Below, in pieces: positions 833-4,497 of a stretch of 8,637 nucleotides of DNA. Below the pieces are notes generated by a model. The model had not been told where the DNA came from, made no database searches, and was given only the letters and a program-made list of their open reading frames with translations. Location of the stretch: the IMG/VR virus record IMGVR_UViG_2734482537_000006. One strand, given 5' to 3'. A program made the position numbers and the translations under genes. Position 1 is the first letter of the stretch. Every line of letters starts with the position of its first letter. Source of the DNA: a virus. Lineage: Duplodnaviria; Heunggongvirae; Uroviricota; Caudoviricetes.

Positions 833-1414
833 TTACCCTATAGGTGCTACTGGCCATTCAATATCCGGTGCAGTTGATGTATCAACACGGTTCAGCAACA
901 CCCGATACTTTTTCCAAGCTTCCAGCAACAAGGTTTCTTTCTCCGTTGCGATCTCCAGATCCACAGCATCCTGAAGCGGCGCTATATGCTCACTGGCTAC
1001 CTGCATCAGGCTGTTTTTTGTTTCTTCCGCCTCCCGGATCCGGAACAGTTTTTCTGCTTCCGTATCCTTCACCCAGGCTGTGCCGTTCCACTTCTGAAAC
1101 TCCCCTTCCGGGGATAACCAGGTGACATTTTCCGGTAATGAGCCGAGTTCAGAAATAAATAACGCGTCGCCGGAAGCCACGTCATAAACCGTTTTACCCC
1201 GATGATCTTCAACGAGATGCCACGATGACTCATCACTGTTGAAAACAGCCACGAAACCAGCCGGAATATCTGGCGGTGCAATATCGGTACTGTTTGCAGG
1301 CAGACCTGTATGAGGCGGAATATATGCGTCACCTTCACCAATAAATTCATTAGTTCCGGCCAGCAGGTTATAAATTTTTATGGTCCGTGCTTGTTCACTC
1401 ATTCTGAATGCCAT
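833..1414 (-). CDS. tfa: Tail fibre assembly protein Tfa (lambda Tfa family chaperone)
   Basis: 193-aa [47 protein letters not shown]..., essentially collinear with lambda Tfa as I recall it. Its ATG overlaps the stf stop by one base (TAATG at 1416..1412), the usual coupling arrangement. Confidence 0.95.
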
Positions 1415-4400
1415 TATGCGAGCCTCACAATATAGTTAAATGCGATGTTTTTGACGGTGTTTTCCGCGTTACCAGCAGCGTTAACGGTGATGGTGTGTCC
1501 ATGTGAACCAATCGCAACAGAGTGCGTATGAGCACCAATACCGACAGTATGCGCGTGTGCACCCGCAGATGCTGCTGTGCCGGACAGTGAGTGTGTATGG
1601 TTTCCTTCTGAAGATGATTTACCTACCCATTGGGAGGTGCCACTGGTTAATGAGCCACTGATACCAACCTGATTAGTCCCGCTAACTTGAGTACTCCCTG
1701 CCGGAAACATTCCAGTAGGTTGACTCCCGCTATTCGTTCTGGGCCCAGTCTGACTATGTTGGTGGGCCCCAGCTGAACTTGTAGAGCCGCTCAGACTGTG
1801 CGTATGCGCCCCGGTGTTATTCGTGGATTTAGTGCCGTAATCAAACGACGATGTGGTTTTCGTCCCCAAATCCGTACTGGATGCGCTGGCGCTGTGGGTG
1901 TGCGATTTAATGCCATCCTGTTCCTGAGACAATACGGCACGACCACTGGCGGGCTTGCCCTTAATCGTCCAGCCACGCATATCAGGGATCACGCCTGACG
2001 GATAAGCGGCTGCAAGTTTCGGGTAAGCAGATTTGTCAAAAGTCTGCCCCTGCATCAGGGCATAACCAGACGGAACGGTATCTGATGGCCACGGGATTGG
2101 TGCACCGACTGGATAAAACTCTGCAGGAGGATGAGCCGAGGTGTAAAGCTGCGCCCACGGCGACCAGTTTGCGTCGGTCGTATCCCGTCGTGAACGAATA
2201 AATGCCGGAGCATGAGCACCGCTTGTACCACTCCAGCCGATGAGTAACTCACCTTCGCCAACGGCTGTCATCCCTTTCAGGTGAATGATATTTCCATACG
2301 CTGTTGGATATCCGTTGTTATACACCTCGTATAACTCAAGACCTGCTGCCCCCTGCGTATTGTCTGTCAGCGCGGCTACCCGACCTTTTGAAGCCAGATT
2401 AACTGATGATACTGCTGTTCCACCTGACGGTAGCGCCCCGATCTCTGATGCCGTTGGCTTATTTCTGGAGTTATAGTCCCTTCGCCAGCCAGGTGAATAA
2501 TCTGTTCCGTGATTAATATAGGTAAACTGGGCGTTGGTTGTTCCGCCACCGCTGGATGTGGTCGGAGTGGTAATGCGGATCGTCATCGCTGACTTTATCC
2601 CCATTACTTCAATGACAGCTCCGGCGAGATGAATATTACCGCAGCCAGTATCAGTAATGATTTTATTATTGCCATAAGACCAGGAACCCTTGCACATCCA
2701 GTATGGATGGTTAAATGCTCCCTGAGAATCCAGCCACTCGATAAACTGTGCAGTCGTCCAGTTTCCTGTTGTTGTGCTTACTGACCCACCGAAGGCACGG
2801 CAGGCACCAATATTTTTCGTAAAGGTGTCTTTGCCAGGGATATCCGCACCGTTCTGATCTTTCTGCAGACGTTTCTCAGCATTGTCATTGGCTGCTTTTA
2901 CTGCCTTTGGCGTTGCCGCCAGCGTTTCAGACGTGCTGTTGGTCGCGCTGCTTAGCTGGATTATCCCTTTCTGTGCTGTCGTTGCATCCTGTGCGGTGTA
3001 TTTCCCGTTAGCCAGGTCATACGCGGCCTTAACGGCTTTTGGTGTTGCCGCCAGTGACTCGGAAGTGCTGTTAGTCGCACTACTGAGCTGTACTATCCCC
3101 TTTTTCGTCGTGCTCGCATCCTCAAGCGCCACGGCGGATGCAATATCCTCTGCCCGTTTTGCCGCTGTCTCAGCGCGCGTTGCTGCAGATTCCGCCGTAC
3201 TTTTGCTCTGAGCTGCTGCCGTCGCACTACCAGCAGCCTCTGTCGCCTTCGTGGATGCCGTCGTGGCGCTGCCCTTCGCTGCTGACGCCTGTCTGGTCGC
3301 CTCATCTTTTGAAGCAGACGCCGATGATGCCGATGACGCCGCCGAACTGGCGGACGATGCGGCAGCCGTTTTTGAGGATTCTGCACGGGTTTCCGACGCT
3401 TTCGCGTTCGTTTCGGATGTCTTCGCTGCGGAAGCTGACCTCGCTGCTGCCGTGGCCTGCTCAGTGGCTTCGCCAGCCTTCGTTGTGGCTGTTGAAGCGG
3501 ATGATGCGGCGCTTTCTGCCGATTTTCCGGCGGCGGTGGCACTGGCTGAGGCCTGCCCGGCACTTGTTGACGCGGCGCTGGCAGACGACGCAGCCGCTGT
3601 TTTTGAGCCTGCCGCAGCTGAGGCACTCTGTCCCGCTGCCGTTTCAGAAGACCTGGCGTTCGTCTCGGACGTTTTGGCCGCCTTCGCAGAATTTGCAGCC
3701 GCCGTCGCCGAGGAAGCTGCGCTACTGGCGCTTGATGATGCGTTCGTTTCTGATGATTTTGCCGCCTCTTTTGAAGCCGACGCATCCCGGGCTGAGGTGG
3801 CAGCTTCTGACGCTTTCGTGGTCGCGGTGGATGCAGAAGTGGCTGCTGATTGTTGTGACGCTGCCGCATTCGTTTCTAACGTTTTCGCCGCACCGGCACT
3901 GGTAGCCGCCGCGCTTTTTGAGGACTCTGCAGCGGCAGCACTTTTTGAGGCTTCAGTGGCCTTTGTTGATGCCGTTCCTGCGCTGGAAGACGCTGACTGA
4001 GCCGACGAAGCGGCCTGTCCGGCTGACGTGCTGGCTGCACGTGCTGAATCTGCAGCATCAGTCGCATGGGTTGCCGCCTCACGGGCTGATGTGCTGGCAT
4101 CGCTGGCTGATTTCTTCGCGGCTGCCGTGTTCTGTGCCACCGCGGACGCGTTACGCGCCACCTCTTCCACCATCAGCTCAAAACGGCGCAGTGCCTCCGG
4201 ACGGGCATCATCCTCCGTCATGGCACCGAGAAAATCATTCAGCGTACCGGGTCGGGAATCTTCATACACGGTGATGGTCCCGGCATGTGACGGCGGGAAT
4301 CCTTCCACCAACAGAATAACGCTGTACTGACCGTACTCAACGTCCATGCTGTAACGCCCGGCTTCATCCGGATTTTCTGAGGCCAGCGTGTTCACCACCA

Positions 4401-4497
4401 CCGTGGTGCTGTTACGTTTTGCTTTCAGCTGGATTGTGCAGTTCTGTACCGGTTTTCCTGTGCCGTCTTTCAGTACACCTGAAATCTTTACTGCCAT
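1414..4497 (-). CDS. stf: Side tail fibre protein Stf (lambda Stf / T4 gp37-like), about 1027 aa
   Basis: N-terminus [26 protein letters not shown]... and C-terminus ...[45 protein letters not shown] match lambda Stf as I recall it. Between them is a long Ala/Ser/Thr-rich region with reiterated KTSETNA-like motifs, two 44-aa tandem repeats and multiple HxH motifs near the tip. I place the start at the ATG at 4497 (MAVKISG, preceded by GGGGTG); the ORF track begins at an in-frame GTG at 4503. Confidence 0.92.
2894..3107. repeat. Imperfect tandem repeat inside stf (period 132 bp / 44 aa; conserved core KGI(V/I)[11 protein letters not shown](S/T)[11 protein letters not shown])
   Basis: Seen in sequence: the Stf segment ...[73 protein letters not shown]..., and the same periodicity in the antisense ORF 2882..3211. 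DNA identity between the cores is roughly 75% by eye. Confidence 0.6.

Follow-up and report, generated by a model that had tools for sequence, protein, structure and literature searches.

The side tail fibre gene (stf) at positions 1414-4497 on the (-) strand of an 8,637-nucleotide stretch of Caudoviricetes DNA (IMG/VR record IMGVR_UViG_2734482537_000006; the whole stretch is referred to as the window) encodes a protein of 1027 aa, and raises the question of whether this is an unusually long fibre, extended by expansion of a repeat shaft as the original prediction held, or a regular member of its family. We assign a probability of about 0.92 to the reading that stf belongs to a lambda-like E. 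coli prophage and is an intact, ordinary, mosaic side tail fibre gene, with its modules arranged in series (Table 1). Judged by sequence, every part of the protein appears to fit some known phage fibre module, and the gene is one already known; cultured phages carry annotated genes with 95-98% identity to it, and of 5426 E. coli genomes, 5174 contain stf-like DNA.

The reading frame, as given in the ORF list and on a strand that the original prediction had left unnamed, opens at ATG 4497 and ends with the stop codon at 1414-1416, with an in-frame GTG at 4503 as an alternative start that would yield a 1029-aa product. The ATG was chosen because it is preceded by a GGGGTG Shine-Dalgarno-like motif and because lambda Stf in PDB 9e7m begins at the corresponding residue. 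The gene order J-lom-stf-tfa, all on the (-) strand, is the same in lambda and in Escherichia phage PhiR68_2, and places stf where a member of the Stf family belongs, after J and lom and directly before an intact tfa, whose start shares one base with the stf stop. J runs on beyond the high-coordinate end of the window, and its Pfam domains include the C-terminal receptor-binding domain. On Stf itself, Pfam recognizes phage_tail_N, two copies of Phage_fiber_2, and Collar. The first of these (PF08400) spans residues 1-134 (E 1.4e-71) and, together with the 9e7m match, marks homology to residues 1-91 of lambda Stf, the tail-attachment (collar) domain by which the fibre is fixed to the tail where gpV meets gpM (PMC12617516). 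The lambda-like N-terminus of ~100 residues that had been predicted is thus borne out, and the same holds for the other elements of the proposed ~1027-aa lambdoid Stf, namely the open reading frame, the shaft, the 44-aa repeats and the HxH-bearing C-terminus.

Table 1. Features of the stf locus, with positions in the window.
Feature	Position	Strand	Basis
tfa, tail fibre assembly chaperone, 193 aa	833..1414	(-)	Pfam Caudo_TAP PF02413, E 5e-44
Stf distal collar and needle, residues 794-1027, homologous to the T4 gp37 receptor-binding tip	1417..2118	(-)	PDB 2xgf, E 1e-81
Stf variable tip ('head') between HxH 3 and 4, residues 915-966, 52 aa	1600..1755	(-)	length comparison with T4 and relatives
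Stf connector, residues 724-793, without family assignment	2119..2328	(-)	differs from lambda and StfR in alignment
Stf middle module; homologue: variable part of S' (gp52), a tail fibre of phage Mu	2329..2850	(-)	PDB 8ju3
Stf two tandem 44-aa Phage_fiber_2 repeats, residues 462-505 and 506-549	2851..3114	(-)	Pfam PF03406, two stretches
Stf heptad-repeat shaft, residues ~101-460, ~51 heptads	3118..4197	(-)	lag-7 periodicity, register, AF2 monomer model
Stf 105-aa (15-heptad) stretch without lambda counterpart	3274..3588	(-)	alignment; gap placement alignment-dependent
Stf N-terminal collar/attachment domain, residues 1-94	4216..4497	(-)	PDB 9e7m, lambda tail fibre protein, E 1e-51
lom, Ail/Lom outer-membrane protein, 199 aa	4875..5474	(-)	Pfam Ail_Lom, E 2.5e-122
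J, 3' part (central tail fibre/tip attachment protein)	5545..8601	(-)	Pfam J-specific domains

Between residues ~115 and 455 (nt ~3133-4155), Ala, Ser and Thr together account for 70-80% of the protein. As Tandem Repeats Finder (TRF) is blind to periodicity at the protein level, the periodicity of the shaft was measured by protein lag-autocorrelation. Residue identity is elevated at each multiple of 7 aa up to lag 126 (z = 6.4-10.8), with all other lags at or below 3. Self-comparison therefore reveals the predicted periodic repeats, at a 7-aa spacing far beyond chance, but the shaft is a strict, stutter-free heptad array and not the low-complexity region that had been described. The register reads xSAxxAx with Ser at g, shows no phase break, and has Ala at d in 47 of 49 heptads and at a in 35 of 49. 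Such uninterrupted heptads with Ala at a and d are indicative of a proximal trimeric coiled coil. In an AF2 monomer model of residues 95-560, helix extends over ~98-475, with two short breaks at single-chain fold-backs, and given its moderate confidence (mean pLDDT 67.8) the model is taken as weak support only; since the model is of a single chain, we infer rather than observe the trimeric state and the packing of the Ala core. By analogy, the shaft is probably a proximal trimeric alpha-helical coiled coil as in Ur-lambda Stf, for which a model resting on cryo-EM, cryo-ET and AlphaFold3 places a linker and the proximal coiled coil after the collar domain, then a hinge, and lastly an OmpC-binding distal part resembling gp37 (PMC12617516). 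The biased composition and the just moderate AF2 confidence would also suit a disordered, possibly glycosylated low-complexity linker that forms no structured rod, yet we regard this as extremely improbable, given an exact 7-residue period maintained across 360 residues with Ala in 47 of 49 cases at one position, the helix of the monomer model, a shaft length that is kept across relatives, and the rigid coiled coil that cryo-EM and cryo-ET see in the homologous lambda segment (PMC12617516).

The two 44-aa tandem repeats that were predicted to follow the shaft are each matched by Phage_fiber_2 (125.4 bits against a cut-off of 22, for a family of ~42-aa repeats). The copies share 28 of 44 residues and, at the DNA level, 107 nt at 74% identity with a spacing of 132 nt; among relatives the copy number ranges from 1 to 4. 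The repeat region is matched by PDB 5yvq (Mu S), and residues 539-723 by 8ju3, which is Mu gp52 (PMC11821841), with an E-value of 1e-69 and a core identity of 75%. For the connector that follows, neither Pfam nor PDB gave a convincing sequence match.

The distal part is 72.6% identical overall to T4 gp37 (2xgf), and 80.7% outside the tip, with Pfam Collar at residues 798-845. Seven HxH motifs are present (residues 866, 898, 912, 967, 981, 990 and 999), of which six had been listed in the original prediction and one, in KSHTHS at 864-869, had been missed. All seven align column for column with the iron-coordinating motifs of gp37, which coordinate seven iron ions (as cited in PMC11705849). Thus, homology to the crystallised collar-needle-head fragment and HxH motifs in register agree with the predicted HxH-rich tip of the T4 gp37 metal-binding type. 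The segment between the third and fourth motifs, which is presumed to be the receptor-contact region, is rich in Gly, Ser, Thr and Gln and is longer than the 34 aa of T4, within a range of 32-53 aa in relatives. Of 5426 complete E. coli genomes, 25 carry the tip DNA allele found here. As this allele is rare and is unlike those of lambda and T4, binding to OmpC should not be assumed.

Whether the fibre is unusually long depends on the reference. The protein exceeds lambda Stf (774 aa; positions 3001-5325 of the lambda locus) by 253 aa, so in this respect the predicted length stands. A homologue search with residues 1-505 gave only very close, mostly partial matches, all of at most 884 aa, and was dropped for the length survey, which instead drew on loci from IMG/VR and GTDB genomes and comprised 57 intact relatives, with shaft lengths given for 53 unique relatives. 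The 57 range from 774 to 1176 aa with a median of 1077 aa, and 36 of the 57 are longer than 1027 aa. Stf here is therefore below the family median, lambda Stf is the short outlier, and being longer than lambda is no sign of unusual length. Nor is the shaft expanded: measured between conserved anchors it is 330 aa as opposed to 225 aa in lambda, but 330 aa is the standard form, present in 50 of the 53 unique relatives and in StfR of E. coli K-12, and the 105-aa stretch that lambda lacks is present in both StfR and PhiR68_2.

The original prediction further envisaged that DNA repeats in the shaft serve as substrates for slippage, such that changes in repeat number actively tune fibre length. A shaft 105 aa longer than that of lambda, shafts of ~60-230 aa in more distant relatives, and small in-frame indels in three relatives (+4, -3 and +9 aa) all speak for this mechanism, and the indels do sit at micro-repeats, namely a TSAS duplication, an ASS deletion at a 9-nt TRF array (3317-3341), and a 9-aa duplication. 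None of them is larger than 9 aa, however. No exact repeat of at least 12 nt exists in stf; the longest exact direct repeat is 11 nt, as expected under a synonymous-codon permutation null, and no identical run between the two 132-nt units exceeds 11 bases. TRF applied to 1300-4600 returned three weak arrays only (scores 43-50), so that long perfect or near-perfect tandem repeats are absent from the gene, and the constancy of the 330-aa shaft in 50 of 53 relatives is at odds with frequent repeat-number polymorphism. Total length instead follows the class of the middle module, the number of 44-aa repeats and the length of the tip, and the protein here falls short of the family median. We consider length tuning by slippage very unlikely, and for the close family largely refuted; most length variation arises from exchanged middle and tip cassettes and from one to four copies of the 44-aa repeat, with slippage as a minor contributor. 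The converse idea, that stf is selected against DNA repeats to limit recombination, was dropped as well, as repeat counts within the permutation null give no sign of avoidance or excess. Protein repeats whose DNA is fully diverged at synonymous sites would thus be structural repeats and not slippage substrates.

Heptad numbers between the anchors fall into few discrete classes, with ~32 in lambda, ~47 in most E. coli prophages, and far fewer in some E. ruysiae relatives. One might speculate, although we find it doubtful, that the heptad rod is a length-calibrated spacer that sets the reach of the side fibre relative to the central J fibre. If so, the 15-heptad difference would have been selected as adaptive, for instance on hosts whose O-antigen or capsule is longer, rather than being a neutral difference between cassettes.

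The shaft is also crossed by open reading frames of 249-258 aa in other frames and on the opposite strand. C occupies codon position 2 in 235 of 360 shaft codons, which leaves at most two stops in three non-coding frames and accounts for the length of these frames. None of the alternative-frame or antisense frames contains a Pfam family above the curated cut-off, and they were rejected as genes, in agreement with the prediction that they are spurious products of the low-complexity coding.

A perfect 273-nt direct repeat is located at the lom-stf junction. The duplication has left behind stf' in truncated form and a broken piece of lom. A 71-nt probe across the duplication junction was matched in E. 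coli genomes, by a search that joins pieces, to separate normal lom and normal stf pieces, and none of the matches listed contains the junction contiguously. The near-identical locus of IMG/VR UViG 2698536366_000004 carries a 77-nt deletion in lom and a second, partial J-lom-stf' copy. Together with the residence of K-12 StfR in the cryptic prophage Rac, the rearrangements at both loci could mean that a defective prophage has left stf as an inert relic, intact by chance or through recent arrival and never assembled into a fibre. This appears unlikely in view of 1027 codons that remain open, an intact and overlapping partner tfa, conservation of all seven HxH motifs and of the collar residues, an unbroken heptad register, and genes of 95-98% identity in PhiR68_2, PhiR26_1 and mEp460 (GenBank hosts: E. 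coli laboratory or ECOR strains).

For an ordinary, intact Stf, the architecture, homologies, heptad register and population comparison observed above suggest how the chains may trimerize and bind metal, and what rod length, receptor and function the fibre may have. The protein would form a homotrimer that works like lambda Stf and is built of five modules in series. Following the collar domain, the ~51 heptads of residues 101-460, with their Ala core and Ser at g, would make a thin, rigid, trimeric coiled-coil rod of perhaps ~53 nm, some 15 nm (15 heptads) beyond that of lambda. The two Phage_fiber_2 repeats would constitute the third module and the module common to Mu S' the fourth, and the T4 gp37-type collar and needle would end the fibre. 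On the threefold axis, each of the seven HxH pairs per chain may bind a metal ion, and the variable 52-aa tip may touch the host surface at an OmpC-like porin and/or LPS. Tfa, encoded downstream, would fold the distal part, and the side fibre would presumably speed reversible adsorption ahead of J-receptor binding. The extra length relative to lambda would come from the make-up of the cassettes rather than from ongoing repeat slippage: the shaft is of the standard long form, the 44-aa repeat is present twice, the middle module is larger and the tip longer. Beyond correct annotation the locus is of little importance, but the module map (collar, 51-heptad Ala-zipper rod, Phage_fiber_2, Mu S'-like module, gp37-type iron needle, rare 52-aa tip) could aid the swapping of Stf tips for host range.

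Compared with lambda Stf, the gene order, the near-identical collar domain (residues 1-94), the type of heptad shaft, the Phage_fiber_2 repeat, and the collar and HxH needle are shared, with the last ~30 residues identical. The differences are the additional 15 heptads (105 aa) of shaft, two full 44-aa repeats as against the one copy detected in lambda, another and larger middle module (244 versus 128 aa), seven HxH motifs instead of eight, and a tip of different sequence and length (52 versus 45 aa). StfR of the E. coli K-12 Rac prophage (b1372, 1120 aa) is closer, with 89% identity over residues 1-565, an equal 330-aa shaft, seven HxH motifs and 76% identity across the C-terminal 262 residues. 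In StfR, however, the 44-aa repeat occurs once, the middle module is unrelated and, at 397 aa, longer, and the tip is shorter, at 36 aa; overall, StfR exceeds Stf here by 93 aa. PhiR68_2 Stf (GenBank PV340576, 1025 aa as annotated) is 95% identical from end to end and contains the same modules, differing by another tip allele (48 aa), and the protein of UViG 2698536366_000004 is 100% identical to Stf here; both loci are without the lom-stf junction duplication.

T4 gp37 (2XGF) shares the collar-needle-head fragment, with the identity given above extending over 215 aligned residues that include the seven HxH motifs, and with nearly identical C-terminal 32 residues. It differs in the tip, which is of unrelated sequence and 34 rather than 52 aa in length, and Stf before residue 794 is unrelated to gp37. 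The chaperones differ likewise, as T4 uses gp38, whereas that encoded here is a lambda-type Tfa (Pfam Caudo_TAP). Finally, Mu S' (gp52, 8JU3) and S (gp49, 5YVQ) are homologous over the Phage_fiber_2 repeat region and the next ~140 residues, with the 75% core identity falling in the variable part of S', but the Mu fibre goes on to its own C-terminal receptor-binding domain, whereas in Stf a gp37-type needle is fused to the module.

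The genes in the window belong to the distal tail module of a lambda-like prophage and all lie on the minus strand (see table). The original prediction placed stf correctly, leaving only its strand unsaid. The ATG at 4497 is preceded by a Shine-Dalgarno-like GGGGTG, and the first residues encoded from it, MAVKISG, are shared with lambda Stf in cryo-EM entry 9e7m; some annotations start two codons further upstream, at an in-frame GTG (4503). The AT-rich sequence downstream of tfa contains no ORF of at least 60 aa and may represent the prophage end or a moron region; beyond tfa, relatives carry the pin invertase (Rac prophage, phage PhiR68_2) or, further on, an AraC-family gene (STEC316). 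The Rfam IS009 match (218 bits versus a gathering score of 117) probably reflects conserved tfa sequence captured by the model, not a separate RNA gene. The 562-aa ORF that runs opposite to J reaches the curated cut-off of no Pfam family and most likely arises as a side effect of the GC-rich coding sequence of J. As had been noted, long spurious ORFs (249–258 aa) accompany stf in other frames and on the opposite strand, and none has a Pfam family over the curated cut-off. Three of the non-coding shaft frames contain at most two stop codons because C occupies codon position 2 in 235 of the 360 shaft codons.

Features of the window (nucleotide positions) and of Stf (residues)
Feature	Position	Strand	Remark
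J, 3′ part	5545-8601	-	gene runs on beyond window end
ORF, 562 aa	6565-8253	+	antisense to J
lom	4875-5474	-	
Perfect 273-nt direct repeat	4335-4607 = 4648-4920		spacing 313 nt
Further repeat pair at lom-stf junction	4602-4649, 4998-5045		
stf′ fragment	ATG 4810		54 Stf codons, then F-stop
stf	1414-4497	-	1027 codons
TRF array, 9 nt	3317-3341		
tfa	833-1414	-	one-base overlap with stf stop
Rfam IS009 (RF02111)	873-1071	-	wholly within tfa CDS
AT-rich region	1-832		GC 0.29-0.38
Terminator-like hairpin, strong	716-740	+	within AT-rich region
phage_tail_N	residues 1-134		Pfam
Phage_fiber_2, two repeats	residues 462-549		Pfam; the two 44-aa units
Collar	residues 798-845		Pfam
Match to lambda Stf (9e7m)	residues 1-94		
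Match to Mu S (5yvq)	residues 490-568		
Match to Mu S′ (8ju3)	residues 539-723		core 75% identity
Match to T4 gp37 tip (2xgf)	residues 794-1027		E 1e-81
HxH motifs	residues 866, 898, 912, 967, 981, 990, 999		

Composition (Ala, Ser and Thr make up 70–80% of residues ~115–455) and Pfam confirm the predicted Ala/Ser/Thr-rich shaft and the two 44-aa repeats. The shaft is not, as first described, of low complexity, but a strict heptad array. Residue-identity autocorrelation over Stf 101–460 gives z = 6.4–10.8 at all lags divisible by 7 as far as 126, and no other lag rises above z = 3. When laid out in rows of seven, residues ~101–460 follow a single x-S-A-x-x-A-x register with neither stutter nor phase shift, in which Ala occupies one core position in 47 of the 49 rows and the second in 35, and Ser the position preceding the core in 36. 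Such exact 7-residue periodicity and position-specific Ala make a disordered low-complexity linker barely conceivable. The AlphaFold2 single-chain model of residues 95–560 exhibits a helix through ~98–475 at moderate confidence (mean pLDDT 67.8), with the chain bent back against itself, as expected of a monomer. The Ur-lambda structure divides lambda Stf into a collar domain (residues 1–91), a flexible linker (92–101), a proximal trimeric coiled coil (102–393) followed by a hinge, and a T4 gp37-homologous distal part that is predicted to bind OmpC (PMC12617516). By analogy, the window Stf shaft would be the same element as this coiled coil, and at ~0.15 nm/residue its 360 residues would span ~53 nm.

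Lambda Stf, taken from a lambda record with intact stf, has 774 aa, 253 fewer than the window Stf, and alignment of the two with K-12 Rac StfR and PhiR68_2 Stf assigns the window shaft 105 extra residues, i.e. exactly 15 heptads. StfR (1120 aa; 89% identity to window Stf over residues 1–565) and PhiR68_2 Stf (95% identity end to end) also carry this stretch. Among loci with the Stf N-terminal domain, drawn from IMG/VR and one genome per species and read out as complete ORFs, we surveyed 57 intact relatives having a gp37-type C-terminus (53 unique). Total length ranges over 774–1176 aa (median 1077), with 19 relatives shorter than the window Stf, 36 longer and one identical (L031, UViG 2698536366_000004). 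The shaft between conserved anchors measures 330 aa in 50 of the 53 unique relatives, 225 aa in lambda, and 334 and 327 aa in two; it is 339 aa in a further relative, L072, whose C-terminus differs. Thus, the ‘unusually long’ fibre and ‘expanded’ shaft of the original prediction hold against lambda but not against the relatives, of which lambda Stf is the short outlier. The 44-aa repeat is present in 1, 2, 3 or 4 copies, the middle region spans 128, 163, 244, 316, 356, 396/397 or 416 aa, and the tip between the third and fourth HxH motifs 32–53 aa; in the window Stf, the standard shaft comes with two repeats, a middle region of the 244-aa class and a tip of 52 aa. By megablast, stf-like DNA is found in 5174 of 5426 complete E. 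coli genomes, with at least 80% of the gene covered in 636.

The shaft had also been proposed to change length by slippage at DNA repeats. No exact direct repeat of at least 12 nt occurs anywhere in stf, and the counts of 8–15-nt repeats and the longest repeat lie within the distribution of 300 synonymous-codon permutations; at the level of DNA, then, the protein repeats have diverged completely, as expected of heptads that are old and under structural constraint. The two 132-nt units share runs of no more than 11 bases (74% identity over 107 nt), and TRF reports three arrays only, all weak. What stands of the slippage claim are rare in-frame shaft changes at micro-repeats in three relatives: a TSAS duplication (+4 aa), an ASS deletion at the 9-nt TRF array (−3 aa) and a +9 aa change, each altering length by ≤1.3 nm and breaking the heptad phase. 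With shaft length constant and repeats of at least 12 nt absent, active tuning of the shaft by repeat number is highly improbable.

Three distant relatives (L105–L107; Escherichia ruysiae and Escherichia sp. E1V33; 673–798 aa) share the N-terminal collar domain and have periodic, AAKTSETNA-type heptad shafts of roughly 60–230 aa, fused to wholly different distal parts with no HxH needle; collar and coiled coil therefore act together as a general-purpose adaptor for various kinds of receptor-binding module. Shaft length differs among deep lineages, yet not by active repeat-number change. A selected role for heptad number, as a ‘reach’ ruler that comes in discrete classes, is possible but doubtful. 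Lambda-type stf N-termini, 91% identical to that of the window, also occur on low-coverage contigs, several of ~48.4–48.5 kb (L086-L098, L100-L103, L108, L112, L116-L117, L119), in assemblies labelled Pseudomonas, Shewanella, Oceanobacillus, Desulfosporosinus, Kitasatospora and others; nine of these loci encode the frameshifted lambda PaPa product of 401 aa, and the set has the look of contaminating or spiked-in lambda DNA, not of genuine prophages. Three partial Stf proteins in NCBI (P0007, P0017, P0020) are named ‘short-chain fatty acid transporter, partial’, an evident misannotation probably caused by the Ala/Ser-rich low-complexity shaft.

Between lom and stf lie 371 nt, versus ~58–65 nt in lambda, PhiR68_2 and STEC316, because of the perfect 273-nt direct repeat. 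The minus strand reads full lom, a terminator-like hairpin, stf′, a frame-broken 3′ lom fragment, a second hairpin copy and the real stf. A junction-spanning probe gave split (normal) matches only, among the matches listed, in E. coli genomes, and the duplication may be a product of recent rearrangement or of the assembly itself. L031, at positions 1–4896, encodes the identical Stf and matches window 36–4649 at 99.98% identity without the duplication; its lom passes straight from the 48-nt repeat into a deleted form lacking 77 nt, as if two 48-nt copies had recombined, and a second partial J-lom-stf′ copy (~90% identical) lies further upstream. The duplication scar would suit an inert relic of a defective prophage, a reading made unlikely by the intact stf and tfa, the conserved motifs and the unbroken heptad register.

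A search of Stf against sequences of solved structures gave four informative matches (see table), of which 8JU3 is Mu gp52 (PMC11821841); residues 724–793 had no convincing match there or in Pfam. In addition to the module order, homologies, heptad register and population pattern observed here, work on lambda and T4 suggests how the fibre would operate: three chains would assemble with the help of Tfa, their N-termini joining the collar where gpV and gpM meet; the Ala-core coiled coil would keep the distal part off the tail, with hinge and repeats providing a joint; and an iron-stapled needle would offer the variable tip to a porin or to LPS, so that reversible adsorption is fast and precedes the binding of J to its receptor.

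The distal match to T4 gp37 reaches 72.6% identity over 215 aligned residues (80.7% without the tip), and the HxH motifs, seven and not the six first listed, all align with the seven of gp37, which in the crystal structure ligate seven iron ions (summarised in PMC11705849). Because of this match and the aligned motifs, the original reading of the tip as gp37-type is correct, and the sequence observations on the fibre are confirmed; metal binding and receptor would follow by analogy. Between the third and fourth motifs lie 52 aa, rich in Gly/Ser/Thr/Gln, against 34 aa of unrelated sequence in T4; the DNA encoding the 52-aa segment is found in only 25 of the 5426 complete E. coli genomes. The finding is already known: each Stf module belongs to a described family, a gp37-type tip is established for the lambdoid Stf family, near-identical genes in phage records carry the side tail fibre annotation, an identical protein is already public, and the E. 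coli K-12 reference genome encodes a homologue that has this same shaft and is longer overall.
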